Source: a virus
Lineage: Duplodnaviria; Caudoviricetes
Virus record (IMG/VR): IMGVR_UViG_3300027759_003166
Strand: one strand, 5' to 3'
Length of the DNA: 64,000 nt
Of this stretch, positions 5,390-37,857 are shown one piece after another; position 1 is the first letter of the stretch, and every line of letters begins with the position of its first letter. The notes beneath the pieces are model-generated. The model did no database searches. It saw only the letters and a program-made list of their open reading frames with translations, and was not told the DNA's origin. Position numbers and translations under genes: made by a program.

Positions 5390-5432
5390 GCATCCAATAA
5401 ATATTCAGATTATTAAATAGAAAGACAATAAA

Positions 5433-6823: not shown

Positions 6824-6828
6824 AAATT

Positions 6829-9874: not shown

Positions 9875-9896
9875 AAATTTATAAAGGAAAATAATA

Positions 9897-10508: not shown

Positions 10509-10521
10509 TATTAGATAATCT

Positions 10522-13519: not shown

Positions 13520-13520
13520 T

Positions 13521-20155: not shown

Positions 20156-20461
20156 TTATTCGGGTTCTACTTTAATTATCAAAGGATACCCCTGTGCTCT
20201 GGCTAAATTGGTTCCGTCAACAGCTTTTTGTTCTGCTACTTCAAAACTATAAATTCCTGCCACAGCACTACCTTTATTATGTATTGCCAGAGTTAATGCA
20301 ATAGCAGACTTTTCATTATGCTTGAATATTGACACAAGCATGGCAATTACAAATTCCACAGAAGTTTGATCATCATTACACACAATGACTTTATACTTGC
20401 TGGGTTCTTTAAGTTTGGCAGTAGTCTTAGACTTTTTGTCTACAATGATATCAGTGGTCAT
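20156..20461 (-). CDS. clpS: ATP-dependent Clp protease adaptor ClpS
   Basis: YKVIVCNDDQTSVEFVI, IHNKGSA...FEVAEQK and YPL. Confidence 0.9.
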   Translation of the reverse strand: MTTDIIVDKKSKTTAKLKEPSKYKVIVCNDDQTSVEFVIAMLVSIFKHNEKSAIALTLAIHNKGSAVAGIYSFEVAEQKAVDGTNLARAQGYPLIIKVEPE

Positions 20462-20477
20462 AATCTTATTTTATAGA

Positions 20478-20493
20478 GGGGGCCGAAGCCCCC
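20478..20493 (-). terminator. GC hairpin with UUCG loop between hsp20 and clpS (terminator or stabilising stem)
   Basis: GGGGGC-TTCG-GCCCCC on the minus strand, with only a weak U tract. Confidence 0.5.
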
Positions 20494-20498
20494 AAACT

Positions 20499-20933
20499 TT
20501 ATTCGCCCTTGAGTTTAAGGACACGTGGTTTCAAAGCATCAGGAACGATACGCTTTAATTTAATGGTAAGCACACCATTCTTGATAGTTCCATCTCCAAC
20601 TTCCATATGTTCAGCTAATGTCCAGCTACGTGTAAAGTCTCGGAATGCAAGTCCACGATGTAAAAATTCAGCAGTTACATCATTGCTTTTATCTCGAATG
20701 CCTTTGACAATGAGTTGATTTTGATCAATCTCAACTGTAACTTCGTCCTTAGCAAACCCTGTAACAGCAATTTCAATCTCGTAAGAGGTGTCGTCGTGTT
20801 TAATAATGTTGTAAGGGGGATAGTTGTCTTTAAGTTGATTTGCAAAACGATGTTCAAAATCTTCAAACATTGTATCAAATCCCAGAAGTGCTCTGTTGAG
20901 AGCGTTGGTGTCGAAACGAGTTAATTGTGTCAT
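20499..20933 (-). CDS. Small heat shock protein Hsp20 (IbpA-like)
   Basis: YPPYNI, IEIAVTGF, FLHRGLAFRDF and NGVLTI. Confidence 0.93.
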   Translation of the reverse strand: MTQLTRFDTNALNRALLGFDTMFEDFEHRFANQLKDNYPPYNIIKHDDTSYEIEIAVTGFAKDEVTVEIDQNQLIVKGIRDKSNDVTAEFLHRGLAFRDFTRSWTLAEHMEVGDGTIKNGVLTIKLKRIVPDALKPRVLKLKGE

Positions 20934-21017
20934 AATTTTTCTCCTTTAAAAGTAAGACAATTTTGGGCACTATGCCCTAAAGTGGGACCCTTAATAGGTG
21001 TCCCACAATATTATTTA
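20934..21017 (-). promoter_or_regulatory. TAAATA promoter plus a three-hairpin ROSE-like thermometer leader of hsp20
   Basis: GTGGGAC/GTCCCAC stem, GGGCA-TAG-TGCCC stem, then TCTTACTT pairing with the SD AAGGAGA. Confidence 0.55.
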
Positions 21018-22919
21018 TTATACAGTCTCTTGAACGTCGGCTGCAACCACGCCATCTTCCGCATCTTTTTTAGCCTGTTCTTCAGCTTTTTTAGCTGCTT
21101 CTTCGGCTTCGTGCTTCTTGGCTGTAATTGGACCCATTGCTTGATAAAGTTTTGGAACGCTGTCTTGAATGATTTTAGGATCATCACCTTTGATAGCATC
21201 ACGAATTGCCTGTGCTGCATCGTCGGCATTGGCCTTTTCTTCTTCAGTAACTTGATCACCAAACTTATCAATATCTGCTTGGAATTCATTTAGGGTAGAT
21301 TCTGCGCTATTACGTGCTTCAATAAGCTCACGTAGTTTCTTATCTGATTCGGCATTAGCTTCGGCGTCTTGAACCATACGTTCAATTTCGTCTTTGCTAA
21401 GTCCGCTATCGGATTTGATAGTGATCTTATTTTCTTGGCCGGTGCCTTGATCCTTGGCACTAATATTCATAATACCATTGGCGTCAATATCCAAAGTAAC
21501 TTCAATTTGCGGAGTACCTTTACGTGCTGGAGGAATTCCACTTAATTTAAATTCACCAAGCAATTTATTGTATTGAACAAAATCACGCTCTCCCTGGAAT
21601 ACTTTAATATCCACAGCAGGTTGATTGTCTTCGGCTGTACTAAACACTTGACTATGTTTGGTAGGAATGGTTGTATTCTTTTGAATCAACTTAGCCATTA
21701 CACCGCCCTGTGTTTCAATACCAAGACTTAGTGGAGTAACGTCCAGCAATAGAACGTCTGTACGTCCACCACCTAATACGTCACCCTGGATAGCAGCACC
21801 AGCGGCAACTGCTTCGTCTGGGTTAACATCCTTACGTGGTGCCTTGCCGAATAGTTTCTCAACTGTTTCGATAACCTTAGGCATACGTGTCATACCACCG
21901 ACTAAGATAACTTCGTCGATGTCGCTGGCAGTAACACCTGCATCTGCCATAGCAGTTTTGCAAGGCTCAATACTACGTTGGATCAACTCGTCAACAAGCT
22001 GTTCCAACTTCGCACGAGTGATCTTAACATTCATATGTTTAGGACCACTTGCGTCTGCTGTGATGTAAGGCAAGTTAACATCTGTTTGTGCTGAACTTGA
22101 CAATTCAATCTTAGCTTTCTCAGCAGCTTCTTTCAAACGCTGGAGTGCCAACATATCCTTCTTAAGATCAACGCCGTTGTCTTTCTTGAATTCATCGACC
22201 AAGAAATCCATAATACGTTGGTCAAAGTCTTCACCACCTAAGAATGTATCACCGTTAGTAGATAGAACTTCAATTTGTTTGTCGCCATCAACGTTGGCAA
22301 TTTCAATAATAGATACGTCAAATGTACCACCACCTAGGTCATAGACAGCAATCTTACGATCACGCTTGTCTGCTTTATCCATACCATAGGCAAGAGCAGC
22401 GGCAGTTGGTTCGTTGATAATACGTAGAACTTCAAGTCCTGCGATTTTACCAGCATCTTTAGTTGCTTGACGTTGCTGGTCATTGAAGTAAGCAGGTACG
22501 GTAATAACTGCCTGTGTAACTTCATGTCCAAGATAGTCTTCAGCTGTGAGTTTCATCTTACGAAGAACTTCGGCTGAAATTTGTGGAGGGGCAAGTTCTT
22601 GATCATTTGCACTAACCCAAGCATCACCATTGCTGGCTTCGATGATTTTGTAGGGCATTAGATCAATGTCCTTCTGCACAGCTTGTTCTTTAAACTTACG
22701 TCCAATTAGACGCTTGGCTGCATAGATTGTATTTTTTGGATTAGTAACTGCCTGGCGTTTTGCACTGGCACCTACAAGGATTTCATCGTTAGCATAGGCA
22801 ATAATACTAGGAGTAGTTCTTGCACCTTCGCTGTTTTCGATTACTTTGGGGATACCGTTTTCAATAACGGCTACACATGAATTGGTTGTACCGAGATCGA
22901 TACCGATTACTTTACTCAT
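21018..22919 (-). CDS. dnaK: Chaperone DnaK (Hsp70)
   Basis: [25 protein letters not shown] and GGMTRMP. Confidence 0.97.
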
Positions 22920-23002
22920 TATTTCTCCTTTGATTAAGTAAGATTTTTTTGGGCACTATGCCCGATAAGATATCCAATATAGGTATATCGTGCATTTATT
23001 TA
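22920..23002 (-). promoter_or_regulatory. TAAATA promoter plus a ROSE-like thermometer leader of dnaK
   Basis: Same GGGCATAGTGCCC hairpin and TCTTACTT/AAGGAGA anti-SD stem as upstream of hsp20. Confidence 0.55.
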
Positions 23003-23013
23003 TTATAGATAGA

Positions 23014-23292
23014 TCATGTATCTGTGTCAACATGATCGGCAGCTTTTGCTACATTTTTCATTATTTCTATATATTTTTTACTACTCTGCTCCGAATCAAA
23101 ATTGGATATCCTTTGTTCACCTAATGTTTTTAACATTGGATGAATTAACTTTTCTGTGATCCTACGACTCATATTTTCTAAAACCGTGTCTATGTCTTCG
23201 CCCTGGGCAATTTTTTGCATAGCACGACCTGTTTCAAACATTTGAACACGACCGGCCCATGACTCCATAGACTCACCGGGTTTAATTTTCAT
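23014..23292 (-). CDS. Stand-alone glutamyl-tRNA reductase dimerisation-domain-like protein
   Basis: ETGRAMQKIAQGEDIDTVLENMSRRITEKLIHP resembles the HemA C-terminal E..RA...L..G.D...VL..L...LTNKLLH.P. Confidence 0.6.
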   Translation of the reverse strand: MKIKPGESMESWAGRVQMFETGRAMQKIAQGEDIDTVLENMSRRITEKLIHPMLKTLGEQRISNFDSEQSSKKYIEIMKNVAKAADHVDTDT

Positions 23293-24098
23293 TACAAATC
23301 AAATACCAATGTACTAGTAATCTTAGGGGTAGGCATAGGTTCCACATCCATACTTAGTAGATCACCTACCACACGGCTGCGATTCTTGACATTGGTTTGC
23401 CCGAGAACAACTACTCCAAATAATTCTTTATTCTTTTCCACTAGCATAAGCACACAGCGTCCTGCCGGATTGGTAAATCCAGTTTTGCTGATTAGAATAT
23501 TATCGTAGACGAATATATCCGGATTGGTATTTCGTATATTAATATGAATTACTTTTTTACCTCGAGGAATATTCAATACAGCATTACGTTCGTTGGCTAT
23601 TTTTCTAATCACTGGTTCGTCTTTGATTTTATACAAGAACTCAATAAGTTCACGGGCTGTACTCTTATTACCTTCTTTAAGACCTGTGCTATCTACAATT
23701 GTAGTATTTTCTAATGTAATATCTTTGACATAGTTATTGACATCTGACAAGAATTTATCAAAGCCGCCCGGATGATGATAGGCTAATGTTTCTGCTGCTC
23801 TGTTATCACTGCTGATTATCATTGATCGCATTAGATCCATACGAGTCATGTATACACCTCTGGGTACATGACCTTTGCTCCGACCGTCAACAAATATCTT
23901 CTCGTTAAGATCCGCACCACTACGTATCACAGTTATAGCTGTGAATAATTTTGTAATGCTGGCAATGCTGCGTACTTCCATATGGTTGTATCTCACAGCA
24001 TACATGGCTGCGTTATAATCATAAAGGGCATAGGATCCAGTTTCTCCGTATGCCGACAAGGACATTAACATTGAAAGTATAATAAAGAGTTTTTTCAT
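23292..24098 (-). CDS. Peptidase S11 D-Ala-D-Ala endo/carboxypeptidase (PBP7-like)
   Basis: Signal peptide, SITK (SxxK), SDN (SxN) and KTG. Confidence 0.9.
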   Translation of the reverse strand: MKKLFIILSMLMSLSAYGETGSYALYDYNAAMYAVRYNHMEVRSIASITKLFTAITVIRSGADLNEKIFVDGRSKGHVPRGVYMTRMDLMRSMIISSDNRAAETLAYHHPGGFDKFLSDVNNYVKDITLENTTIVDSTGLKEGNKSTARELIEFLYKIKDEPVIRKIANERNAVLNIPRGKKVIHINIRNTNPDIFVYDNILISKTGFTNPAGRCVLMLVEKNKELFGVVVLGQTNVKNRSRVVGDLLSMDVEPMPTPKITSTLVFDL

Positions 24099-24310
24099 AT
24101 TGAGTATTTAAGTGCAAAAAAAGTAGCGAATTTTTCAGTATTGAATGCAAAGATAGCATGTCGAGGCCTAGGTGAGTCTGTTATAGTAAATTCAGTAGAG
24201 CTCACATAAGTAAACTCAAAGTCTATACCTTGTATCATACCTTGCTGTCTAAGTTCTCTAACTATTTCCATAGTTCTTTGGGCATCTATGTATAAGGTAA
24301 CGGTCTTCAA
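24095..24310 (-). CDS. Small phage protein, F-x-L-[RK]-[WY]-S family
   Basis: C-terminus ATFFALKYSI; translationally coupled array member. Confidence 0.6.
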   Translation of the reverse strand: MKTVTLYIDAQRTMEIVRELRQQGMIQGIDFEFTYVSSTEFTITDSPRPRHAIFAFNTEKFATFFALKYSI

Positions 24311-24603
24311 GAGTACCTCAATATAAACATAGTCGCATCTTTTTCATCTTTGAAATAGAATTTTTTATCCTTCTCAAACCAACGTGCGCCACTCTTGCCG
24401 AAGTGTTCTCTACACCAAGCCAGAGCAGGAGTGACTATATCATCGTATTTGTTCTTATCAGTAACAGGCAGTGATACCCAATGATATTCGCCAAGCCAAC
24501 TTTTGGCCGTGCCTTTCTTCATTGGTGTAAGTTCAGGCTCCAATGTGACACCATTAAATGGGCTTGTATTAAAAACAGGAATTGTTGTTGCCATTATGAC
24601 CAC
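24307..24603 (-). CDS. Small phage protein, F-x-L-[RK]-[WY]-S family
   Basis: C-terminus KDATMFILRYS. Confidence 0.65.
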   Translation of the reverse strand: MVIMATTIPVFNTSPFNGVTLEPELTPMKKGTAKSWLGEYHWVSLPVTDKNKYDDIVTPALAWCREHFGKSGARWFEKDKKFYFKDEKDATMFILRYS

Positions 24604-24821
24604 CTTAATATAAACATAGTGTAATCTTTATCTTCGTTCCAAATACACCATTCAAAATCATCATCAACTAAAATATTAAATTTACCTAACAATTCTCTTG
24701 ATACCGCCCTAGTTCTTTTTTCTTGCGGCAATTCCATCATATCAGACACTAATGGGTCCAATTGCCTTAGTAGCCTTGAAAAATTATTTAGTTCATGATA
24801 TGGAGTTTTAATCATGACCAC
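24594..24821 (-). CDS. Small phage protein, F-x-L-[RK]-[WY]-S family
   Basis: C-terminus KDYTMFILRWS. Confidence 0.65.
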   Translation of the reverse strand: MVMIKTPYHELNNFSRLLRQLDPLVSDMMELPQEKRTRAVSRELLGKFNILVDDDFEWCIWNEDKDYTMFILRWS

Positions 24822-25129
24822 CTCAATATAAACATAGTACGATCACGTTCTTCACAGAACCAATACTTACGATCACTGCCAACCCAACGAGCATTTTCTT
24901 TGAGCCAATCAGATTCTCCCATAGTATCCGCCATCCACTCACCCATCTCATACCACTCTCCGGAATCGTAGTTGTATGGTCGAACCCAATAGGGCCATTT
25001 AGGTTGATTATCAGCATAGCCAGTTTCAAGGCGTTTCATGTTGATTTCGTTTATCCATTCGTCGGCCATGTCGGATATCCATCTATCTTTGGCCATAGCA
25101 CGTTTCTTAAGCATTAAATATTTTCCCAA
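24812..25129 (-). CDS. Small phage protein, F-x-L-[RK]-[WY]-S family
   Basis: C-terminus RDRTMFILRWS. Confidence 0.65.
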   Translation of the reverse strand: MGKYLMLKKRAMAKDRWISDMADEWINEINMKRLETGYADNQPKWPYWVRPYNYDSGEWYEMGEWMADTMGESDWLKENARWVGSDRKYWFCEERDRTMFILRWS

Positions 25130-25361
25130 CGTGTTCTACAGTGAGATCATCGTTGGGCACAATAGGAGCGTTCCACATCAAGGCCATTAGCAATGCGTCT
25201 TTATTGCTTTTGAAAACAAAATCCATATAGTTGACATTGGCATGACTTTGGAATCTATCACCAGGCAAGCCAAAATGTTCAATAGCCCATGCACATACGT
25301 CGTTCCATTGTTCCGAGTTTCCAAAATCTCGACTCCATGATATGCGTACTGTACTTGACAT
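25107..25361 (-). CDS. Small phage protein, divergent member of the same family
   Basis: WAIEHFG...FKSNKDALLMALMW. Confidence 0.6.
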   Translation of the reverse strand: MSSTVRISWSRDFGNSEQWNDVCAWAIEHFGLPGDRFQSHANVNYMDFVFKSNKDALLMALMWNAPIVPNDDLTVEHVGKIFNA

Positions 25362-25537
25362 TATTCAACTCCGAAATGTTGTTTAATCAAATCCGAAGCA
25401 AGGAATGGTTCTGCGGTATCGGCAATCTCGGCACATTTGAGAACAATCAACTCAGCAAACTTTTGGTAATTGAAGTTAAGTCCAAATTCATTGTGTTCCC
25501 AACATTGGGGTTCAATTTCTTTGATTCGATTGTTCAT
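25361..25537 (-). CDS. Small hypothetical protein (58 aa, not in the ORF track)
   Basis: GGAGA SD, then MNNRIKEIEPQCWE...KFAELIVLKCAEIAD...KQHFGVE. Its stop overlaps the next ATG. Confidence 0.65.
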   Translation of the reverse strand: MNNRIKEIEPQCWEHNEFGLNFNYQKFAELIVLKCAEIADTAEPFLASDLIKQHFGVE

Positions 25538-25631
25538 TCTATATATCTCCTAGAATCTTCATTAGAGCGATAACACATATATAATACTCCTACAATATAT
25601 CCAATTAAAAATCCAAAGAATAAATCCCAGG

Positions 25632-25979
25632 TCATTTTGTTTTCCTACGTTTAAGCATTTTTTGATATTGCTCTTCAGTTAATGAATGGCTAGTATCACA
25701 ATCACCATTTGGATCTAAGGTACGACCGCAATGACAAGACCCATTCATATCTATTAATCGTGTCATACCTTTCATTGGTACTGATACAATATATCTAATT
25801 TGTTCTTCTACTCTAAGAGGTAGATCAGAATGTACAAGTACATTATCTTCAACTTGTCTTATAACCATTCCAACTATGGGCACTTTGTTTAATCGAGCAA
25901 ATACTCTATCTCCATAGTTGTATTTGGGTTTAGGCAAGTGTGCATCTCTTTGTAGAAATTGATCAGTTTGTGTTACCAT
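25632..25979 (-). CDS. Hypothetical protein with a C-terminal CDGSH-like Cys3His motif
   Basis: CHCGRTLDPNGDCDTSH. Confidence 0.5.
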   Translation of the reverse strand: MVTQTDQFLQRDAHLPKPKYNYGDRVFARLNKVPIVGMVIRQVEDNVLVHSDLPLRVEEQIRYIVSVPMKGMTRLIDMNGSCHCGRTLDPNGDCDTSHSLTEEQYQKMLKRRKTK

Positions 25980-25986
25980 ATCATTC

Positions 25987-26382
25987 TTAATACAAAACAG
26001 GTTCTACTGTATGCTCACCTTTTAGGGCCATCCATACTTCTTCTTTTTCAGTGAATACAAGCCCGCGGTTTTCTAAAATAGGTCGACGCATAGCCGATGT
26101 TATATCACACCATGCATCTACGTTAGCATAACTGCCATATGCTACCGTTGGACAGCATTCGTTGATCCAACCAGCCAAATTCTTAAATGCCTCAATACTA
26201 TTAGAAGGATGGCTACTACGCATAGCACCTAAAAAGTCATTGGCTAATACAGCAGTAAAAAAACTGCCAGATGGATATCCATAGACCAAATAGTTAGCAA
26301 TGGTATCGGCAAATTCTCTAGGAACATCCCACCGTTCGAATGTTTCGTACAAACGATTTCGACTATAAACAGTTATATTCAT
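25987..26382 (-). CDS. Hypothetical phage protein
   Basis: Start moved to MNITVYSRNRL, just after the upstream stop. Confidence 0.6.
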   Translation of the reverse strand: MNITVYSRNRLYETFERWDVPREFADTIANYLVYGYPSGSFFTAVLANDFLGAMRSSHPSNSIEAFKNLAGWINECCPTVAYGSYANVDAWCDITSAMRRPILENRGLVFTEKEEVWMALKGEHTVEPVLY

Positions 26383-26383
26383 A

Positions 26384-27199
26384 CTACACCTCAAAGTAAA
26401 AGTCAGGTTTAAAACCACTGGTATCTTCGTGTCCAATGTAGCCACGTGGATTACTAACCACTCGTGTATTACCAATCATATAGTCAACTGGATCGTGCAT
26501 ATGGCCATGAACAAAGTATTTGATGTTAGGAAAATCTAAAATCATTTCACTTAGGTCGCTGGTGTATCCCCCATTCATAGTTTGATCGTTCTTATATTTG
26601 TCATTGATACTTGCATAACTAGGACCGTGATGAGTAATGACAACAAAGGGTTTGTCACGATTCATTTCCAATACGGTTTTAAAGTATTGTTTAGTCTTAA
26701 AATGTACCCCAGCAGTATGCTCAGGTGTTAGTTTATGATACACATCTTTAGCAGGATAATGATTAGTTATAAGTTTGTAATCATTCATGAACTGCTTGAG
26801 AGTAAATGCTGTAATGCTATCACCTTTGTTAAGGTCGGTCCATAGCGTAGCACCCATAAACATAACACCCTTGTAATTAACAACTTCGTTTTCTAACAAG
26901 GTAACATTCTTAGGTAGGATGCTTTTTAGCTCATCATAGGTTTTATCAAACCGATTGTGATAATGCTCATGATTACCAAGCACCATAAACACTTGGTCAT
27001 ACTTGGCACACTCCCATTTGAAGAACTCGGAACACCGGAATTCTTCAATAGGAGTATCTTGTACTAGTTTAGTGCTGTGGTGATGCTTGCGGATGCTACG
27101 TGCCTCGGCAATATCTCCGGCCAAGATGAGTACCTCACCACCGGGAAGTTCTTGGTAGCCGAATTCTAAATGTAGATCTGATACTAAACTGACTCTCAT
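26384..27199 (-). CDS. Calcineurin-like metallophosphoesterase
   Basis: SDLHLE, AGDI, GNHEHY, THH and HGHMH. Confidence 0.88.
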   Translation of the reverse strand: MRVSLVSDLHLEFGYQELPGGEVLILAGDIAEARSIRKHHHSTKLVQDTPIEEFRCSEFFKWECAKYDQVFMVLGNHEHYHNRFDKTYDELKSILPKNVTLLENEVVNYKGVMFMGATLWTDLNKGDSITAFTLKQFMNDYKLITNHYPAKDVYHKLTPEHTAGVHFKTKQYFKTVLEMNRDKPFVVITHHGPSYASINDKYKNDQTMNGGYTSDLSEMILDFPNIKYFVHGHMHDPVDYMIGNTRVVSNPRGYIGHEDTSGFKPDFYFEV

Positions 27200-27546
27200 G
27201 TTATCTTGACCTGATTTTTTACTCGATCACTATATAATTTATGCCCACGTTCTCTAATCAGATCAGCAGTCTCTTGTGGGTGTTCCTCCCACTGTTCTCT
27301 CCAAAACGCTTCATCCATTCCTTCAGTACAATCAATGGCATAGATTTCATAATGACGTTGCGGATTAAATCTAGCCCGCAATAACAAATTTTTAACAATG
27401 CTATTAAGAGGGTTTGGAATACGCGGTTGATCCCTTAACAATCGCATGGTATTTTCTTGATCGTGAAACTCATATTGACTAATGGGTACAATAGAGTCAA
27501 TGCCCAAATGATCCCAAGTAAAGATGAATGCGTTCTTTGTTGCCAT
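27196..27546 (-). CDS. Hypothetical protein, probably leaderless
   Basis: ATG lies 6 nt downstream of a perfect TATAAT. Confidence 0.6.
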   Translation of the reverse strand: MATKNAFIFTWDHLGIDSIVPISQYEFHDQENTMRLLRDQPRIPNPLNSIVKNLLLRARFNPQRHYEIYAIDCTEGMDEAFWREQWEEHPQETADLIRERGHKLYSDRVKNQVKIT

Positions 27547-27552
27547 ACTGAT

Positions 27553-27581
27553 ATTATACACTAAACTGGTAAATTTGTCAA
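27553..27581 (-). promoter_or_regulatory. Consensus sigma70 promoter
   Basis: TTGACA-N17-TATAAT. Confidence 0.85.
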
Positions 27582-27619
27582 GTGGTTTTCAAACCGTTAA
27601 ATAGTTAAAAGGATTGATA

Positions 27620-28039: not shown

Positions 28040-28788
28040 AGCCGTTGTTCATAATGTACTTCTGCCCATTTAAAATTGTTCCAGGGAGAGTTTATTGCCA
28101 TTGAAGTTTTTTCACGTATATCGTGAAAGAACAATTTAGCATCAGTTTGTACGCTATCAACTAAACAATGGAAACTACTAGGTACGCAATGTATTTCTTC
28201 AGCACATTGAATTAATTTAGTAAACTGCATCATATCATCAGTAATGCCTTCCTTAATTTCAATAATTTTTATATCTTCTCTTAATCCTTGATGCTTTCTA
28301 AATTCATTAATGTTTATAGGAATACCTTCTGGGTTATCTCCTGTATACCTATGCACTAAAATATAAGGCTGGCCGTTGCTAAGAGATTGATATAGTTCTT
28401 CTGATCCTGCTATGTATTTAGGTAATCTAAAATTTGAATATCTTAATTCAAAGGATAATTCATAGTTTGAATAATGTTGTATATCCCACATAGGGATAAT
28501 CTGATAACTTCTTATATTACTTTGTACAAGAGGTATTGCTAGTAATCTAGAAAGTCCATGCGCTTTGGCATATTGAGCATGATGCTCTTCTATAGGTTCT
28601 AGTGCAACTACTTTTATGTTAGGATGATCTTGATACAATGTTTTTGTAGTTTTGTAGAAACTTGGTCGTGCAGGGAGATGTAATTCCTGGCATCTATCAG
28701 CATAATGATTTATCATACCGCTTTGTACAAAGCTATCACCTAATCCAACTGATCCTAGAAAAAATAATCTATCAAATATCTTTATCAT
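28036..28788 (-). CDS. Hypothetical protein, possibly GT-B-like
   Basis: GLGDSF N-terminus and AEEIHCVPSSF, similar in layout to viral glycosyltransferase-like proteins. Confidence 0.4.
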   Translation of the reverse strand: MIKIFDRLFFLGSVGLGDSFVQSGMINHYADRCQELHLPARPSFYKTTKTLYQDHPNIKVVALEPIEEHHAQYAKAHGLSRLLAIPLVQSNIRSYQIIPMWDIQHYSNYELSFELRYSNFRLPKYIAGSEELYQSLSNGQPYILVHRYTGDNPEGIPININEFRKHQGLREDIKIIEIKEGITDDMMQFTKLIQCAEEIHCVPSSFHCLVDSVQTDAKLFFHDIREKTSMAINSPWNNFKWAEVHYEQRL

Positions 28789-29318
28789 TAACGTTCTCTG
28801 ATATTTAATTTACGATACATATTTTGTACACCCACTGCCTGACGGATAGCATCTTCCAACGCATCGTGTTTCCCACCTGTGGGCATATCTGGATCAAAAC
28901 CAAGATCAAACAATGTTCGTGTATCACGCAATTGCCAAAAGTTCCAGGGCAACGGTTTGTTTAAAGAACGATAAATGTGTTCAAGTATAACCAAATCGAA
29001 GGTAGCACCATGGCTCCAGAAGGCGCTACAGCCCCACGCAAACTTATGAAACTGATTAATAGCATCTACTAAAGGAACACGATTGTCTGAACTAAATGCT
29101 TCTTCCATAATAGCAGGATCTTGTTTTGACCACCACTCAATGGTCAGGGGATCTACTTCTCTATTTAGAGCATCTTGGTCATCGATGTTGATACGGAAAT
29201 AGATCTTATCTGAATAACCTGTTCCATATGGATTGAAGTGTACTGCTCCTAATGTAAGGACAACAGCGTTTGGAGAAACTGCCATTGTTTCTAAGTCGAC
29301 CATAAGGTGCTTTGCCAT
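28788..29318 (-). CDS. DEDD 3'-5' exonuclease (Rv2179c / exonuclease VIII-like)
   Basis: MVDLET, WSHGATFD, RDTRT and HDALEDA. Confidence 0.85.
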   Translation of the reverse strand: MAKHLMVDLETMAVSPNAVVLTLGAVHFNPYGTGYSDKIYFRINIDDQDALNREVDPLTIEWWSKQDPAIMEEAFSSDNRVPLVDAINQFHKFAWGCSAFWSHGATFDLVILEHIYRSLNKPLPWNFWQLRDTRTLFDLGFDPDMPTGGKHDALEDAIRQAVGVQNMYRKLNIRER

Positions 29319-29355
29319 AATTGCTTTCTATTAAATTACTATTTTACATTAAAAA

Positions 29356-30982: not shown

Positions 30983-31056
30983 TTTAAGTTTCCTTTTTAC
31001 CGGACACAATGCCGGATTGGTTAAAAATATAACTCAACTATTTAAGTTATGTATAT

Positions 31057-31085
31057 ATTATAGCAAGGTTTTACCTCTATGTCAA
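31057..31085 (-). promoter_or_regulatory. Consensus sigma70 promoter with GGTAAAACC in the spacer
   Basis: TTGACA-tagaGGTAAAACCttgc-TATAAT. Confidence 0.85.
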
Positions 31086-31088
31086 CCT

Positions 31089-31322
31089 TTAATACATCTT
31101 TTTGGGTAATTGCTGGTCACGTAGCTTTTTACGCCAGCGGGCTTTGGCTGCACCTTTGGCTCTTTTTCGGACAGTTGTAGGTTTTTCGTAGAATTCTTTG
31201 GCTCGATAGTCGTCCAAAAGTCCAGAATCTTCCACCTTTTGTTTTAGTTTTCTTAATGCTACGGCTATGGGTAGATCGCCAACAATAACTTTATTTCCGA
31301 ATACTCTATTTGGTTTGCTCAT
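31089..31322 (-). CDS. rpsU: 30S ribosomal protein S21
   Basis: [15 protein letters not shown]...[15 protein letters not shown]. Confidence 0.9.
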
Positions 31323-32538
31323 TTTTATTCTTATCAAAAATCATAATGGCCGACTCGCCATTCACAGTATTCTTACTTATCCGAATTAATGATAAACCGC
31401 GTTCTACAAGTTCAACAGCGTCAAATTGATAGGGCAATAATATCTTTTCAATGATATTTTTCAATCCACGAGCATTAGTTTTAAGTTCTTTAGCCTTGGC
31501 AGCAATTTCCTTTAGTGCATCTTTCTCAAATTCTAATTTAATACTGTCTAATTTAAACATATATTGATATTGTTTAACTGGACTGTTCTTTGTTTCTAAT
31601 AAAATTTCTACAAGTTGTTCTTCTGTAAGTTCATCTACATTAATAATAAGTCCAAAGCGTCCAACAAATTCAGGTATCAACCCATATTTAATTAAGTCTT
31701 TAGTATTCAAATCTTTATAAACAGCATTGCTATCTTCCTTGGTGTCTACATTAGCATGAAATCCCACTGATCTGGCATCTGTACGTTGTTTAATAATTTT
31801 ATCAATGCCCACAAATGCACCGCCACAAATAAACAATATACCGCGTGTATCAATCTCCTGCATTTCACCACCAGGATGTTTACGTTTACTAGTAGCAGGT
31901 ATACGCATAATGCTACCTTCAATCATTTTTAACAATGCTTGCTGTACACCTTCGCCGCTAACATCTCTGGTAATACTAGTGCTTTCACCTTTCTTGGCAA
32001 TTTTATCAATTTCATCAATGTAAACAATACCACGAGAGGCTTTTTCAAGATCTCCATCTGCTTCACTGATTAAACGTGTAAGAATACTTTCTACATCATC
32101 ACCAACATATCCCGCTTCAGTGATACCAGTAGCATCACAAATAGCAAAGGGAAGATCTAAGTAATCGGCGATCTTACGTGCCATCATAGTTTTGCCACAT
32201 CCTGTAGGACCTAGCATAAGCACATTAGTCTTTTCAATCTCTATATCGGGACTAGGATTGTTAATACGTTTGAAGTGTTGACTAACTGCTACACTAAGAG
32301 CAATCTTAGCATCTTCTTGTCCTATTACATAGTCGTCAAGATAATCTTTAATCTTAACAGGATTTAATAGTTTGGCCTGTTCGGTTGGCGCTTTGATTTT
32401 TTCATCAACTAAAATGTCATTGCAGAGATTAACACAGTCATTGCATATGGCTGCGTGTTCACCTACAATTAATTTTTCAACATCTTCTTTACTTTTTCCG
32501 CAAAAGTCACAGGAGTGATGATCTTTAAGTTTTGTCAT
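31306..32538 (-). CDS. clpX: ATP-dependent Clp protease ATPase ClpX
   Basis: Zn finger CDFC...[35 protein letters not shown] loop and VGF loop. Confidence 0.95.
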
Positions 32539-32920
32539 TAAATGCTTTCTCTAAGAATGTTTCTATGTTAGTAATTCTATTTTGATTAATGTAATGGCAT
32601 ATTGCCGATACATTTTCATCTGTGGTTTTGTAGTAAGTATTTTTCTTACCTAATATATAACCATTCAAAACAGAGCTAACGTTATTTAACTCATCCAAGT
32701 TAATATACTTATATTCGGCAACAGCCATGGCATGAAAAAACCATGTTAGTTCAGTCTCCCCGGAATAGAAATATATGTTAATATTTTCTTTAATATCAGC
32801 AGTGGCTAACCAACGACTAACAGCCTCTTGGTCTTCCTCACTTAGATGTATGAATAGAATACTATAGGATTCATTTTCAAAAACATCCGGGGGCGTGATA
32901 AGCGTAATCTTACCTTCCAT
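32525..32920 (-). CDS. Hypothetical protein
   Basis: 131 aa ORF coupled to both neighbours. Confidence 0.6.
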   Translation of the reverse strand: MEGKITLITPPDVFENESYSILFIHLSEEDQEAVSRWLATADIKENINIYFYSGETELTWFFHAMAVAEYKYINLDELNNVSSVLNGYILGKKNTYYKTTDENVSAICHYINQNRITNIETFLEKAFNDKT

Positions 32921-34167
32921 TATACTCGTGCTCTGACTTCATCAGCAATATCAACTGGAACGTGATGCATACTAACTTCTTTATTTTTTACACGATTTAC
33001 CCATTGATTTATAATCAATTCACGTTTACGTTCTTCGCTAACTTCGGCATATTCGGTTTGTGTAATTGTATTAGACCAAACACTACTTTCTTTCTGTTCT
33101 TCATTTTGAACATATCCGTCTGTTACTGTTTCAGTTAATGATACATCGTTAGGCTCAATTACCTGTGTTATACCACATTCTGTATTAGGACAATGTAATC
33201 CAATGTTAGGAGCATCTACTAATTCAGTACCACACTTGCTACAATTAATAGGTTCAAATTCTGTACCTTCAGTAACCTTTACAGCTGGCATAGGAACATA
33301 AGGCACTGGTTCTTCTTTAACTTCTGTCTTGGGCATTCTAAGCCCAACAATGGTGCCATTGCTATCTTTAAGTACACCCGGTTTGCCTTCGCGTTCTCTG
33401 AAATCTTGAAAACTCATTTGGCTGGCCAACAATAGAATAACTGCTAACGGATCAAATACAACAATCAATGTAATGATAACCCAGGTAACTGCTTTCTCTA
33501 AAATAGTTTCATCAGTGCTGCCATAAAAGAAAGCGGCTATATATTTTATCGGTCCAACCTCTGCCTCCACTTTTCTAACCTCGGCGGCAATAGGCGCACG
33601 TTCATTGTTAAGTTCCGCGATAGACTTCTGCGACTGTAGTATTTCATTTTGAAGGCGAGTACGTTCTTTCTGCTGGGACTTTCGCATAGCCACAGCTTTT
33701 TCGGCACCCGTTTCTGTTGTTGAGCGGCCCAATACTTGGTCCACTCCCTCATCCATTTGTTTAAGTGCCTTGCGGTTTGCTTCAATATTCTCTTTTTCGG
33801 TTTTAATTTTTTCATCATATATTGCAATTTTACTTGTAACATCCCCACTGACTAGATTTTGATCACTATGTGCTTTACTAAGGAATCCAAAGATACCCAT
33901 ACTAGTGATAATCATTAATACTACAATAGCTGTAAAGAGATATGTTTTGATCAGTAGTGGAGCAGTCTTCCAATTTTGTTTAAGCCATACTGTGGCCACC
34001 AACTTACTAACCTCTAAGGTAGTTCCCATAATAATAATAGGAACAACGGCGGCGGCGAAAATAGCTGTAAGTCCTACCACGCTATAGTAGACTGCCACTG
34101 CTGAAATACTTAGACCACTTAGTAGTGCGAGATATGCTATAAATTTTTCGTTAAGTGTTGGTTTCAT
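32920..34167 (-). CDS. Membrane-anchored coiled-coil protein
   Basis: Three N-terminal TM segments, a long coiled coil, VFDPLAV TM and a CSKC...CPNTEC motif. Confidence 0.7.
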   Translation of the reverse strand: MKPTLNEKFIAYLALLSGLSISAVAVYYSVVGLTAIFAAAVVPIIIMGTTLEVSKLVATVWLKQNWKTAPLLIKTYLFTAIVVLMIITSMGIFGFLSKAHSDQNLVSGDVTSKIAIYDEKIKTEKENIEANRKALKQMDEGVDQVLGRSTTETGAEKAVAMRKSQQKERTRLQNEILQSQKSIAELNNERAPIAAEVRKVEAEVGPIKYIAAFFYGSTDETILEKAVTWVIITLIVVFDPLAVILLLASQMSFQDFREREGKPGVLKDSNGTIVGLRMPKTEVKEEPVPYVPMPAVKVTEGTEFEPINCSKCGTELVDAPNIGLHCPNTECGITQVIEPNDVSLTETVTDGYVQNEEQKESSVWSNTITQTEYAEVSEERKRELIINQWVNRVKNKEVSMHHVPVDIADEVRARV

Positions 34168-34175
34168 AAGAATAT

Positions 34176-34568
34176 TTACCGTCGCATCCTTGAAATGTCA
34201 ATGGCCTCTTCGTCACTAAACACCGGAACAGCATTGCTCTTATGCATAGTAGCAATACCTTTAACCTTGGTACCAGTATATACCTTAGCTGGTGCCAATG
34301 TAGCAACACCTAGTCCACTATTAAGACTAGGGATATGTTTGGTGTTAGTACGACCCACTGGTGTCTCAAGTTTATATACGAGAGGTTCAGCCGCCATGGC
34401 ACGCCGACGTTTGCGTTCCTCTTGTTCTACACCTTGACGTTTGAGAAGGTCTTTCCATCCAGCATCTAACTCACGTGCTCGTTGAGCTTCAGCAGCATTA
34501 CGGAATTTAAACTTGCCCTTCTTCTTTCCAGTCGTGGTCAAGGCAGGGCCACATAGGTGCATAGACAT
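34176..34568 (-). CDS. Conserved basic phage protein
   Basis: C-terminus YTGTKVKGIATMHKSNAVPVF, a motif recurrent in T4-like phages. Confidence 0.65.
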   Translation of the reverse strand: MSMHLCGPALTTTGKKKGKFKFRNAAEAQRARELDAGWKDLLKRQGVEQEERKRRRAMAAEPLVYKLETPVGRTNTKHIPSLNSGLGVATLAPAKVYTGTKVKGIATMHKSNAVPVFSDEEAIDISRMRR

Positions 34569-34882
34569 TATGCTACTTCTTTAGTAGTTAACGTTTGTAA
34601 TGATCGTTGTTCAACAGCACGCCAGTTTTCTTTAGTAAGACCAGTGAATCGAAGAATAGTACCATTGGTTGCAATCTTGAAACTACCAGCGACAACCCAG
34701 ATCTGAAAACCAGTAGAATCAACTCCTGCAAGTTTTCGAACCACGCCGTTGACTTCACCAGACGCTGTATCACGTCCACGATTCCAATGATAGGTACTTT
34801 TATTACCTTTCCATCTTTGAGAATCACCAGAAGATTCTGTACAAAATTGGGCCAGTGATTGCATAGTAAGTTCTGAGGACAT
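34568..34882 (-). CDS. Hypothetical protein
   Basis: AGGAG SD and its own sigma70 promoter. Confidence 0.65.
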   Translation of the reverse strand: MSSELTMQSLAQFCTESSGDSQRWKGNKSTYHWNRGRDTASGEVNGVVRKLAGVDSTGFQIWVVAGSFKIATNGTILRFTGLTKENWRAVEQRSLQTLTTKEVA

Positions 34883-34908
34883 AATAACTCCTTTGTTGAT
34901 ATGTTATT

Positions 34909-34937
34909 ATTATACGGTAATTCCACTCAAAGAGCAA
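34909..34937 (-). promoter_or_regulatory. Sigma70-type promoter
   Basis: TTGCTC-N17-TATAAT. Confidence 0.6.
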
Positions 34938-34951
34938 GTGTAGATTTTACC

Positions 34952-34976
34952 AAAAGAAAAGGCCCCGAAGGGCCTT
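34952..34976 (-). terminator. Rho-independent terminator after the porin gene
   Basis: AAGGCCC-TTCG-GGGCCTT followed by TTCTTTT. Confidence 0.85.
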
Positions 34977-34997
34977 GGTTACAATTCTAATTTTGGA

Positions 34998-35885
34998 TTA
35001 GAAATTGTATTCTAGACCAGCACCATAACGTGTGGTATCTGTAGCGGAGCTCTCTTTAACATAGCGAGCAAGTACTTTGGTGTTTTTGCCCAAAGCATAA
35101 TTTGCACCTAAGTTATAAGACTTAAGAGGACCATTCTCACCATAGCTTGCCATAGCAACTAAAGTTGGAGTTACTGTTTGGTTTAGACCAACACTCTTAC
35201 CTTGGTTTGCTACATTGGCTACTTTGCTATCGGAATATAATCCAAATACAGTTGTACCAGTTTTGGCAAGACTAAACTTAGCACCATAAACATCAGTTGT
35301 GCTAGTTACGCCGTTGTCAAAACGAGCCCAGGTAGCAGCAACAGGTCCAGTGGAATAAACCAAACTAGCAGTGTATGGATTTGGAGTACCAGCTATTTCA
35401 CTGTTAGATAGTTCATACTTACCAACCAGTCCCTGAACAAGTGTAGCAGATACAAATACTGTATTGCTCAAACGTGCTCCTTGATAGGAGTGAATAGCTG
35501 CGGCGCTGGAACCATACAAATCTCCACCCATGGCATCAAAGCCGTCAATGGATTTAGTTAGAGCGGTTTTGTCACGGCCAAGCCCAATTGATCCTGTCTT
35601 GTTTGATAGGCCAACAAGTGCTGCGCGATCTCCAAGTGTGCTAGCTGCTGGAGCATCTACACCTACATTGGTTTCAACTGTAACGAATGCAGTTAAACCA
35701 TTGCCAATGTTGTCAGAGGCTTTGATACCAATCCGGCTTTTGTCATTGACCATAGATGTTACAGATGCTGCTGTGCCAACAGTAGATGATTCTTCATAGA
35801 CACGAGCCATTCCATAAACGGAGACATCGGCCTGGGCGAATCCCATTAGGCCGATTGATAATGCAAATATTGCAAGTTTTTTCAT
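34998..35885 (-). CDS. Gram-negative trimeric porin (betaproteobacterial Omp32/OmpC-like)
   Basis: Signal peptide, VSVYG, SRIG...GNGLTA and terminal GLEYNF (C-terminal Phe Bam signal). Confidence 0.88.
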   Translation of the reverse strand: MKKLAIFALSIGLMGFAQADVSVYGMARVYEESSTVGTAASVTSMVNDKSRIGIKASDNIGNGLTAFVTVETNVGVDAPAASTLGDRAALVGLSNKTGSIGLGRDKTALTKSIDGFDAMGGDLYGSSAAAIHSYQGARLSNTVFVSATLVQGLVGKYELSNSEIAGTPNPYTASLVYSTGPVAATWARFDNGVTSTTDVYGAKFSLAKTGTTVFGLYSDSKVANVANQGKSVGLNQTVTPTLVAMASYGENGPLKSYNLGANYALGKNTKVLARYVKESSATDTTRYGAGLEYNF

Positions 35886-35928
35886 ATTAAATTTCCTTTA
35901 GTTTTGTATAGTCTAGAAGACATACTAT

Positions 35929-35957
35929 ATTATGTATCTCTTTGAGACAAAGGTCAA
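35929..35957 (-). promoter_or_regulatory. Sigma70-type promoter of the porin gene with an imperfect palindrome in the spacer
   Basis: TTGACC-N17-CATAAT; the spacer holds TGTCTC-AAA-GAGATA. Confidence 0.55.
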
Positions 35958-35974
35958 GAAAAAAGGCTATCAAA

Positions 35975-36241
35975 TTAGCCTTTTTCCTCAGTTTGTACCT
36001 CACGATACCGATGTATGGCCTTTAAACGAGCCAATGCCAAACGTACAGTAATGTAGTCTGATAACTCATCTTCACCAATGTGATGACATTTATCATCACA
36101 TGGTATTAGACTTGGACGACGATATGCAACATGAAAATCAATGTCATCATATCCATCATCGTCGCCGTCGTCTATTTCAGATGGATTACTTCTTTGCAGG
36201 CTCAGTAGTTTTTGCTGCGTCCTTGGTAGCAGGCGCTTCAC
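35975..36241 (-). CDS. Possible acidic hypothetical protein (start uncertain)
   Basis: Fills the gap between genes, but the start overlaps the upstream ORF. Confidence 0.35.
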   Translation of the reverse strand: MKRLLPRTQQKLLSLQRSNPSEIDDGDDDGYDDIDFHVAYRRPSLIPCDDKCHHIGEDELSDYITVRLALARLKAIHRYREVQTEEKG

Positions 36242-36428
36242 TTTTGACAGGCGTAGCTTCTGCTTTCTTTTCTACTTTCTTCTCATCCTTCTTTGCAGGT
36301 GCTGCTGGAGTAGCAGGAGCAGTTGCGGCCACAGCTGGTGTAGCAGGTGCTGCTGGAGTCTTAGCAGGCTCAGTAGCAAAAGCAGATACGGCAACAAGGC
36401 CAGCAATTAGAGTTAAGATTGATTTCAT
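36186..36428 (-). CDS. Secreted Pro/Ala/Lys-rich small protein
   Basis: Signal peptide followed by PAAPATPA and KKDEKK low-complexity sequence; GGAAA SD. Confidence 0.7.
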   Translation of the reverse strand: MKSILTLIAGLVAVSAFATEPAKTPAAPATPAVAATAPATPAAPAKKDEKKVEKKAEATPVKSEAPATKDAAKTTEPAKK

Positions 36429-36519
36429 GATAAGTTTCCTTTTGGTTAATGTACAGAAATTATTTGCTGTACATATATATAACGCGGTAGCTCAAAGGAA
36501 AGTTTACAAGATTATAAAA

Positions 36520-36654
36520 TTATATTTTCAATTCTTCGTAATCGTCTTTACTTACACCACAGTCTGGACAGCAGAAGTTATCATCTAAATCTTCCCATTT
36601 ACCTTCAGTTTCTTCATCGTGGACATGGCCACATACTAAACAAACGTGTTCCAT
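36520..36654 (-). CDS. Rubredoxin (44 aa, not in the ORF track)
   Basis: MEHVCLVCGHVHDEETEGKWEDLDDNFCCPDCGVSKDDYEELKI, with CxxC...CPxC. Its ATG overlaps the rubrerythrin stop. Confidence 0.85.
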   Translation of the reverse strand: MEHVCLVCGHVHDEETEGKWEDLDDNFCCPDCGVSKDDYEELKI

Positions 36655-37103
36655 TATAGTTTCTCCAATACTTCTTGATATGCTGCTGCGTGACGTTGCT
36701 CGACTTTTTGTAATGCTGCAAAACGCTTTTCTGCTCTGGAAAGAATTACAGCAAATTCTTTAGCGTGTTGTTTGCTTTCGTCAATTTGCTCAGATATTGT
36801 TTCTAATATAGTTAATGTTCCTTCGATTATAGCATCCTTTTTAAACTCTGGATACATTACTGTATACTCATAAGTTTCTCCTTCGATGGCTTTTTCCAAA
36901 CATTCTCTAGTACTTGGTTTACCAATAAGTAATTCCAAATGACTCCAGGCGTGTAGCAATTCTTGATCTGCTGTATGTTCAAAGTGTTTAGCAACATCCT
37001 CAAACCCTTCTTCGCGGGCAATTTTGGCAAAATAACGATATTTGATATGTGCCTGGCTTTCTCCTGACAAAGCACTTTCAAGATTTTTTAATGTAACTGA
37101 CAT
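36654..37103 (-). CDS. Short-chain rubrerythrin
   Basis: NLESALSGES, ELLH, EGETYE...MYP and ESKQH di-iron ligands. Confidence 0.88.
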   Translation of the reverse strand: MSVTLKNLESALSGESQAHIKYRYFAKIAREEGFEDVAKHFEHTADQELLHAWSHLELLIGKPSTRECLEKAIEGETYEYTVMYPEFKKDAIIEGTLTILETISEQIDESKQHAKEFAVILSRAEKRFAALQKVEQRHAAAYQEVLEKL

Positions 37104-37126
37104 TGTGTGTCTCCTTGTAAAATTAT

Positions 37127-37155
37127 ATTGTACTTTTATTTAATACAGAAATCAA
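37127..37155 (-). promoter_or_regulatory. Sigma70-type promoter of rubrerythrin
   Basis: TTGATT-N17-TACAAT, then an AAGGAG SD. Confidence 0.6.
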
Positions 37156-37163
37156 CTATAAAA

Positions 37164-37201
37164 CAATATTTTTCAATTGTAATTTCCTATTATGATTATA
37201 G
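37164..37201. promoter_or_regulatory. Possible OxyR/LysR-type operator
   Basis: CAAT-N8-ATTG-N7-CTAT-N7-ATAG, upstream of the -35. Confidence 0.3.
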
Positions 37202-37204
37202 GAT

Positions 37205-37226
37205 AAAGAAACCCGCCGAAGCGGGT
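37205..37226 (-). terminator. Rho-independent terminator after tmRNA
   Basis: ACCCGC-TTCG-GCGGGT-TTCTTT; identical to 42325-42346. Confidence 0.85.
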
Positions 37227-37229
37227 CCT

Positions 37230-37478
37230 TGGTTGTTTTGGTAATAAGGTATTTCCTACCTCACCTTAGCCTCAAGCGGCTATGGAATATAAACTATCGT
37301 TTGCCTTTAGTTTGATTTGCTTGATTTACGGTCATCGCCTACCGAGTTGCCGTCGCTGACTATTTGCCCAATCGATTACCAGAGCACCCCCACCTAAATA
37401 TAAATTATACACTTAGGTGGAGGTGGCCGGATTCGAACCGGCGTCTTGAACACATCATCTTTGAAGGGATTACAACTA
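37230..37478 (-). ncRNA. ssrA: Circularly permuted (two-piece) tmRNA
   Basis: Minus-strand order: acceptor piece ending GCCGG-TTCGAAT-CCGGC-CACCTCC-A-CC (to 37416), a 24-nt spacer, then a coding piece starting GGGGGTG (37391). G3-U70 pair present. Tag ORF 37304-37272 reads ANDSLYSIAA*. Confidence 0.88.
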
Positions 37479-37487
37479 TTCTTTTAT

Positions 37488-37802: not shown

Positions 37803-37857
37803 TTCTATCTCCTGTTAGTTAAATAACGCCTTAGAACACTGTTGTGTTGACATAATT

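Follow-up and report, generated by a model that had tools for sequence, protein, structure and literature searches.

The 64-kb stretch of DNA analysed here (hereafter the window), which belongs to IMG/VR virus record IMGVR_UViG_3300027759_003166, derives from a phage lineage that probably carries its own, nearly self-sufficient set of genes for protein quality control and ribosome rescue. The window supplies an hsp20-clpS pair, an accessory dnaK, a four-gene operon of overlapping genes (orf415-orf131-clpX-rpsU) and a two-piece transfer-messenger RNA (tmRNA) gene, while clpP and a dnaJ-def-clpA operon (def encoding peptide deformylase) would lie in the rest of the genome, as judged from relatives. 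All of the proteostasis and rescue genes are located on the minus strand, and the coordinates given below are positions within the window. An earlier reading of the same DNA, made without database searches (the original prediction), had listed clpS, hsp20, dnaK, rpsU overlapping clpX, and a tmRNA; all six elements were recovered where it had placed them, with the genes intact.

The window represents part of the ~320-370-kb genome of a T4-like jumbo phage from fresh water. The sequence record nearest to it is viral, and at least 229 IMG/VR contigs encode a relative of its ClpX, the best 80 of which (63-97% identity) were kept for locus counts. Related IMG/VR records are labelled G002-G005, G007, G008, G011, G039 and G044 here, and related loci L001/L123. 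G002 measures 322.5 kb, carries direct repeats at its ends, received a completeness rating of 100% and contains a major capsid gene matching T4 Gp23 (271.6 bits). The best 120 ClpX homologues among 5.8 billion proteins all originate from this phage group, on contigs of no more than 367 kb, and Pfam scans of ~70 window open reading frames (ORFs) revealed no bacterial housekeeping operons in the window. The nearest records by ClpX (97% and 93% identity) are 50-kb fragments, and a syntenic 114-kb ENA contig encodes a ClpX 92% identical to that of the window. The window sequence, whole or partial, is present in lake and freshwater metagenomes of 13 studies, and a megablast search of the region against cultured phages returned nothing but one spurious dnaK-like match. 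Several genes of cellular type, namely dnaK, clpX, a porin, a rubrerythrin, a RuBisCO-like gene and glycosyltransferases, might suggest that the contig comes from a bacterium or represents an island in one. However, this explanation is extremely unlikely in view of the viral nearest record, the many ClpX-bearing viral contigs, the complete terminally repeated genome with its T4-type capsid gene, the limited size of the contigs carrying the top ClpX homologues, the lack of housekeeping operons, and the long separate stem of the phage DnaK clade (described below). The phage origin assumed in the original prediction is thus upheld. Further phage-like traits of the window are genes for ribonucleotide reductase and for a SegE-type GIY-YIG endonuclease, numerous small ORFs of unknown function, and a TAAATA motif that lies ahead of gene starts with a strong strand bias.

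The clpX gene (31306-32538, minus strand) encodes a full-length AAA+ unfoldase with an N-terminal zinc-binding domain. The protein passes two equivalog models (NF003745, 525.8 bits versus a cut-off of 359; TIGR00382, 495.8 versus 370.75), and its closest solved structures are ClpX chains (E = 4e-123). Alignment to solved ClpX located the C4 zinc finger, Walker A (GPTGCGKT), Walker B, the pore-1 loop GYVG, the pore-2 loop and the RKH loop, as well as a VGF tripeptide that stands in for IGF and is predicted, like it, to dock ClpP. The zinc finger matches the zf-C4_ClpX family with 54.5 bits, and its four cysteines (Cys10, Cys13, Cys32, Cys35) do not vary among 49 aligned sequences. Across 80 phage ClpX proteins, there is little or no variation in the first two zinc-finger cysteines, Walker A and B, GYVG or the pore-2 motif; [V/I]GF is kept in 79, with G and F invariant, and RKH in 75. 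The intact RKH loop reported in the original prediction is therefore borne out by both the structural alignment and the phage sequences. Motif conservation of this kind, as seen in aligned sequences, indicates purifying selection on ClpX.

Immediately downstream, rpsU (31089-31322, minus strand) encodes ribosomal protein bS21 of 77 amino acids (aa; Pfam S21, 52 bits), which passes the S21 equivalog TIGR00030 (48.3 bits versus 28.95) and aligns to bS21 chains of solved ribosomes; independent gene callers agree on the 77-aa product. Its ATG is situated inside the 3' end of clpX, 17 nucleotides (nt) before the clpX stop codon. On the upstream side, the conserved gene orf131 (32525-32920, minus strand) overlaps the start of clpX, and the operon begins with orf415 (32920-34167, minus strand), encoding a probable membrane protein that has only sub-threshold matches to DUF4407 and tetraspanin; a TAAATA sequence lies 5 nt ahead of its ATG. 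Among the 80 loci, orf131 is present in all 80, orf415 in 74 and S21 in 74. The clpX-rpsU overlap is found in 72 of 73 loci and the orf131-clpX overlap in every one of the 76 measured, and the overlapped operon as a whole is kept in ~90%. No description of an overlapped four-gene clpX-rpsU operon was found in the literature searched, and the arrangement appears to be new. The orf131 product has no Pfam or PHROG match and no usable protein atlas match; its structural model (predicted local distance difference test score of 92.5) adopts a nucleoside-deoxyribosyltransferase/TIR-like alpha/beta fold matching 4mcj and PF15891-type phage clusters, a domain common in phages. A role as an SspB-like ClpX adaptor was considered for this protein and rejected, because the predicted fold is nucleoside-deoxyribosyltransferase/TIR-like and not SspB-like.

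The tmRNA gene (37204-37527, minus strand) is a two-piece, circularly permuted gene of the beta type, with scores of 149.9 bits (threshold 84) for Rfam RF01850 (beta_tmRNA) and 126 (threshold 47) for RF04321 (tmRNA_permuted). The RNA proper occupies ~37204-37477, with the acceptor piece extending to 37416, followed by a spacer and the coding piece. The acceptor stem GGGGGUG/CACCUCC contains G3·U, the discriminator base is A followed by an encoded CC, and a T arm is present. The tag frame (37272-37304, minus strand) comprises a GCA resume codon, the tag ANDSLYSIAA and a UGA stop, confirming the tag ending in IAA that had been read from the sequence earlier, and an intrinsic terminator hairpin (37209-37228, minus strand), corresponding in the alignment to the final helix of the Rfam model, ends the gene. 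ARAGORN called no tmRNA in the window and also missed that of the closest relative (L123), whereas the Rfam models find both; in other relatives it calls permuted homologues with the same tags as those derived here. ARAGORN-based surveys of phage tmRNAs thus undercount this family. In 19 phage homologues, none of the 7 acceptor and 5 T-arm pairs is broken in any sequence, 7 of these 12 pairs show compensatory changes on both sides, and neither G3·U nor the discriminator A varies (19/19), a pattern indicating purifying selection on the tmRNA and suggesting that it is functional.

The phage tags, for example ANDSLYSIAA, ANDELYSMAA, ANDERFALAA, ANDESYALAA, ANDAYFGE(E/D)RLAA and ANASNDEVWALAA, all start with AN, end in AA with a single exception (ANDDTFLLAANA), and match tag types of Burkholderiales. 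Five Burkholderiales genomes that were checked possess one-piece tmRNAs with the tags ANDERFALAA, ANDESYALAA or ANDTSYAVAA. Permuted tmRNAs are present in 3 of 151 sampled Burkholderiales genomes, with the tags ANDEHFAIAA, ANDERFALAA and ANDENFALAA, the first of which provides a bacterial precedent for the IAA ending. A class-level sample of 151 genomes contained no beta-type permuted tmRNA, a sampling too broad to be informative. The phage tmRNAs are 53-67% identical to one another and equally distant from the bacterial ones. The relative whose ClpX is 97% identical to that of the window (L001/L123) has a tmRNA just 53% identical to the window's, with the different tag ANASNDEVWALAA, suggesting that the tmRNA is an exchangeable unit moving independently of its neighbours. 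The literature searched contained no description of tmRNA swapping between near-identical phages, nor of beta-type permuted tmRNA genes being consistently linked to phage clpX and clpP, and both observations appear to be new.

A tmRNA is found in the 10-kb flank upstream of clpX at 51 of the 80 loci, and in ~39 of 50 whole records; in the complete relative G002, clpS, hsp20, clpX and the tmRNA all fall within 12 kb. Together with the clpX-rpsU overlap, these arrangements show that the clustering of the proteostasis genes and the tmRNA is not due to chance. They also bear on the possibility that no functional coupling exists, i.e. that virion morphogenesis is the sole task of the Clp proteins and chaperones, while the tmRNA and S21 act separately as translation accessories and came to share an accessory region by chance. 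Such a view would accord with reviews giving phage ClpA, ClpX and DnaJ roles in assembly or translocation (PMC7824862, PMC6102473), with the accessory status of dnaK, with the swapping of the tmRNA independently of clpX, and with the absence or lack of detection of the tmRNA in about a fifth of ClpX-bearing records. Nevertheless, it is improbable, given the translational overlap of clpX and rpsU, the recurrent position of the tmRNA in the flank of clpX, also in the complete genome, and the conservation of both the tag-reading RKH loop of ClpX and the AA end of the tag. A Gram-negative porin gene (Porin_4, 34998-35885, minus strand) and a rubrerythrin gene (36654-37103, minus strand) are situated between the clpX operon and the tmRNA, and both are variably present among relatives.

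The clpS gene (20156-20461, minus strand; Pfam ClpS, 86.8 bits versus 23) encodes an N-degron adaptor for ClpA and lies downstream of hsp20 (20499-20933, minus strand), the gene for an IbpA-like small heat-shock protein (Pfam HSP20, 56.6 bits). The two genes form a conserved pair, adjoining each other in G002-G005 as well, and a terminator-like scan identified a GC-rich hairpin with 6 G-C pairs between them (20478-20493). Alignment with Escherichia coli ClpS indicated that the N-degron pocket NDDxT and the His are kept, with Val at the gatekeeper position Met40. ClpS falls below the NCBIfam equivalog level (best 83.1 bits versus a cut-off of 149) and is a divergent member of its family; Hsp20 is also divergent, scoring 109 bits against the IbpA model, under that model's cut-off. 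Of 50 related records, 31 encode ClpS, the complete G002 among them. The promoter and leader of hsp20 (20934-21045, minus strand) consist of an extended -10 element, TGTATAAT, fused to the TAAATA motif, TATAATAAATA, followed by an 84-nt leader.

The neighbouring dnaK (21018-22919, minus strand) encodes a full-length Hsp70 (Pfam HSP70, 848 bits) that passes NCBIfam equivalogs (969.5 bits versus 648 and 898.6 versus 822.55). It is preceded by a perfect sigma-70 promoter (22997-23030, minus strand; TTGACA-17-TATAAT, 12/12 match), the -10 box of which is fused to the same TAAATA motif, TATAATAAATA, at 22997-23002. The gene is accessory, being present in 13 of 50 related records and not in the complete G002. 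In a midpoint-rooted tree whose bacterial rows are chosen best matches, the phage DnaKs form a single clade (Shimodaira-Hasegawa approximate likelihood ratio test support of 100) on a long stem nested within Burkholderiales, with 68-74% identity to those bacteria. This placement points to dnaK having been acquired once, long ago, from Burkholderiales, and it suggests a Burkholderiales host range; the phage host is probably a member of this group. Just upstream of dnaK lies a gene for a D-Ala-D-Ala carboxypeptidase (23014-24098, minus strand; Peptidase_S11, 107.5 bits), which is itself preceded by a string of unknown ORFs of 58-105 aa. Directly downstream of clpS are genes for a heme oxygenase (19601-20146) and a ferredoxin-dependent bilin reductase (18955-19626), both on the minus strand.

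The catalytic and cochaperone partners of these proteins are not encoded in the window. Searches by tblastn with the ClpP, ClpA and DnaJ of the phage clade found none of the three in the window, and the ~70 window ORFs gave no Pfam match to SmpB, GrpE, DnaJ or ClpP, in agreement with the original prediction, which had noted that clpP, clpA, smpB, dnaJ and grpE are missing there. In the complete G002 and the large fragments G003, G004 and G005, ClpP, a ClpA-like unfoldase and DnaJ are all encoded, far from clpX. The ClpP of these relatives (PF00574, 210-260 bits; 210-264 bits across the clade) retains an intact Ser-His-Asp triad in the motifs GQACSMG, IHQP and DRD, and scores 291 bits against NF001368 (cut-off 249); a role as a prohead protease was rejected, as its score of 101 bits against the head-maturation protease model is below the cut-off of 120. 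All four records contain the dnaJ-def-clpA operon, in which DnaJ is of class B with HPD, and the ClpA-like protein is a double-AAA+ unfoldase of 755-763 aa (~870 bits) with two Walker sets and a VGF docking loop, scoring below the NCBIfam equivalog cut-offs for ClpA. ClpP is also encoded by the more distant, dnaK-bearing relatives G039 and G044, so that the phage of the window is bracketed on both sides. The ClpP-bearing relatives share 67-82% ClpX identity with the window, and the records without ClpP are all at most 44% complete. The absence of the three genes from the window is thus most likely an effect of its 64-kb frame, and the phage's own genome likely carries clpP and clpA, as far as relatives can tell. 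SmpB, GrpE and SspB were found in none of five large records, the complete G002 among them; since even a complete relative lacks SmpB and GrpE, both must come from the host.

These results divide the main proposal of the original prediction, according to which the phage supplies the substrate-selecting parts and borrows the catalytic cores of the host: borrowing holds for SmpB and GrpE, which are absent from the complete G002, but is not supported for ClpP, ClpA and DnaJ, which G002-G005 encode. In its full form the proposal would have the phage encode specificity factors only (ClpX, ClpS, the tmRNA tag and DnaK), which plug into host ClpP, ClpA and DnaJ and re-route host proteolysis. The lack of clpP, clpA and dnaJ in the 64-kb window would fit this model, the [V/I]GF loop is equally compatible with host ClpP, and G007, G008 and the 113-kb G011 show no ClpP; however, one complete genome and three large fragments encode all three partners, and the records without ClpP are at most 44% complete, making this model quite unlikely. 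Inferring the hijack of host ClpP from a phage adaptor or unfoldase that lacks a nearby ClpP therefore needs whole-genome context.

Under the preferred reading, in which the phage owns a nearly complete set, host alanyl-tRNA synthetase (AlaRS) would charge the tmRNA via G3·U70, and host SmpB and elongation factor Tu (EF-Tu) would bring it, in infected cells, to ribosomes that have stalled on broken mRNAs, where it would append ANDSLYSIAA to the nascent chain. The RKH and pore loops of ClpX would then read the C-terminal AA-COOH of the tag, and the VGF loops would pass the tagged chain to ClpP, either the phage's or the host's. In parallel, ClpS with ClpA-ClpP would take N-degron substrates, DnaK, DnaJ and Hsp20 together with host GrpE would fold or hold the very large virion proteins, and S21, translationally coupled to ClpX, is predicted to enter host ribosomes. 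The net effect would be to sustain translation capacity and proteostasis and to recycle amino acids from early through late infection, with SmpB and GrpE, plus the general factors AlaRS and EF-Tu, borrowed from the host. A more far-reaching version, which is doubtful, envisages a phage-owned tag-and-destroy circuit in which the tmRNA is a swappable cassette matched to the SmpB and tag type of the host, the phage ClpX-ClpP acts independently of host Clp, and ClpX, S21, orf415 and orf131 are made in a fixed ratio as a ribosome-linked quality-control module; cassette exchange would then be a host-range determinant.

The same components could instead be used offensively: phage nucleases would cut host mRNAs, the tmRNA would tag host chains, and ClpXP and ClpAPS would destroy these along with host defence and regulatory proteins, feeding amino acids to the phage. 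Consistent with this, nucleases are encoded in the window and the clade, among them an Rv2179c-like 3'-5' exoribonuclease (28788-29318, minus strand) and a DNA/RNA non-specific endonuclease (59885-60700, minus strand) in the window, relatives encode full ClpXP and ClpAPS sets, the tags match host-type tags, and the same idea has been put forward for phage Melnitz (PMC9004378). However, tagging by a tmRNA does not discriminate between nascent chains of phage and host, no target is known, and DnaK, DnaJ, Hsp20 and peptide deformylase point to maintenance; offensive use is therefore regarded as a possible but unlikely explanation, although nothing in the sequence itself distinguishes it from maintenance. 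Nucleases of the kind encoded here could generate non-stop mRNAs, a substrate for tmRNA action.

The promoters of the set offer some indication of when it may be expressed. TAAATA occurs 47 times on the coding strand and 16 times on the opposite one, which makes a total of 63, well short of the 120 expected; it lies mostly 11-85 nt upstream of gene starts, consistent with it being a T4-type late promoter. At the tmRNA, a T4-late-promoter-like TAAATA (37485-37490, minus strand) ends 7 nt before the 5' end of the RNA and overlaps the stop codon of an upstream small ORF (37488-37802, minus strand) encoding a 104-aa product with a hydrophobic, signal-peptide-like N-terminus. The sigma-70-like promoter of this ORF (37855-37883, minus strand) may also read into the tmRNA. 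In relatives, the tmRNA is often preceded by TTGACA-17-TATAAT fused to or beside TAAATA. Composite sigma-70 and TAAATA promoters suggest expression in both early and late infection. TAAATA is also found 5-7 nt before an ATG at 16923, 18957, 24110, 34178, 51686 and 59719 (first T, minus strand), a spacing shared with the tmRNA 5' end. If the motif is a late promoter, the corresponding mRNAs would be leaderless or nearly so, which could bear on why the phage carries S21.

In one lake metatranscriptome, contigs that match the window with 100% identity cover dnaK and its junction with hsp20, the clpX/rpsU junction, the porin gene and the 5' part of the tmRNA. One of these (20833-21728) spans the hsp20/dnaK junction, and another (37418-37677) runs from the small ORF into the acceptor piece of the tmRNA, ending at the discriminator base. 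An RNA contig also covers 19500-19958 in the heme oxygenase/bilin reductase region. This run yielded no contigs over 23.3-30.9 kb and 32.2-34.7 kb, gaps that are not interpretable.

Several points weigh against a phage-owned, coupled set. The clpP, clpA and dnaJ of this particular genome are deduced from relatives at 67-82% ClpX identity, and the two 50-kb records closest by ClpX (97% and 93%; G007 and G008) lack all three genes, while ClpP was not found in the 113-kb G011 (81%) either. The phage ClpS and Hsp20, as well as the ClpA of the relatives, have sub-equivalog scores. The link of the tmRNA tag to the phage ClpX is proposed on sequence grounds, and no covariation of the tag C-terminus (LAA, MAA, IAA or VAA) with the RKH and pore loops is visible among the 80 ClpX proteins, because these loops are nearly invariant. 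Motif matches alone suggest the timing of expression, and the RNA evidence consists of assembled contigs from one run, which indicate presence only, carry no information on strand, ends or level, and could include DNA carry-over.

Every component of the set already has a precedent in phages. The Agrobacterium jumbo phage Atu_ph07 (Rak2-like) encodes ClpX, ClpA, ClpB, ClpP, ClpS, DnaJ and Hsp20 (PMC6102473; reviewed in PMC7824862). Like the present clade, it thus has its own ClpX, ClpA, ClpP, ClpS, DnaJ and Hsp20, with ClpA adjoining DnaJ; however, it belongs to another lineage with an alphaproteobacterial host, and the section of its description devoted to Clp proteins reports no DnaK, clpX-rpsU operon or tmRNA link. 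Two-piece tmRNAs occur in the OM43 phage Melnitz, in pelagimyophages and in many aquatic phages, and roles in translation maintenance or in tag-and-degrade have been proposed for that of Melnitz (PMC9004378). Melnitz resembles the present phage in being a T4-like aquatic myophage with a complete, circularly permuted ssrA and no smpB. Its tmRNA, however, is of the alpha type and lies behind a glutamine riboswitch, with no ClpX or ClpP reported alongside it (PMC9004378), whereas that of the present phage is of the beta type (RF01850), lies upstream of clpX and encodes Burkholderiales-like tags.

Huge phages are known to carry tmRNA, SmpB and S21 (PMC7162821), and bS21 is encoded by large freshwater phages (PMC9723584; PMC7162821). 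Genes near phage bS21 include Hsp20 (n = 127) and two Clp protease groups (n = 50 and 47), and late expression has been described in Bacteroidetes phages (PMC9723584). In those earlier cases, S21 was part of the structural module of phages with Bacteroidetes hosts, whereas here it overlaps clpX in a four-gene operon. Moraphages, which are large freshwater phages, possess host-derived DnaK, DnaJ and Hsp20 and a core ClpA, with DnaK in only a subset (PMC12619734); they differ from the present clade in belonging to another lineage and in having a Flavobacteriales-derived DnaK, with no ClpX, ClpP, tmRNA or S21 link reported (PMC12619734). Compared with the bacterial ssrA-SmpB/SspB/ClpXP system, the phage set shares the tRNA-like domain with G3·U70, an AND...AA tag, and a ClpX with a zinc domain, RKH and an IGF-type loop. 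It differs in that the phage clade lacks SmpB and SspB (five large records) and has a permuted gene instead of the one-piece gene of the five Burkholderiales checked.

With ClpXP, ClpAPS, DnaK, DnaJ, Hsp20, peptide deformylase, tmRNA and S21, this widespread, uncultured lineage of lake jumbo phages would possess a virus-encoded protein quality-control set that ranks among the most complete seen to date, leaving a short list of items borrowed from the host (SmpB and GrpE). Phage control of translation and proteolysis could be approached experimentally through two features in particular, the conserved overlap of clpX with rpsU and the exchange of tmRNAs between near-identical phages.

Elsewhere in the window, a low-GC (32%) cluster on the plus strand (708-13958) contains genes for three GT17 glycosyltransferases, several methyltransferases and one nucleotidyltransferase. 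Within the same stretch, a 403-aa protein (7821-9032, plus strand) matches the catalytic domain of the RuBisCO large chain with 126.9 bits; the protein is probably RuBisCO-like, an unusual finding for a phage. At 56597-57616, two adjacent minus-strand ORFs (56597-57040 and 57160-57555; 131-147 aa) are each preceded, 61 nt upstream, by a near-identical 30-nt stretch containing TAAATA, an arrangement resembling a local duplication of promoter and gene.

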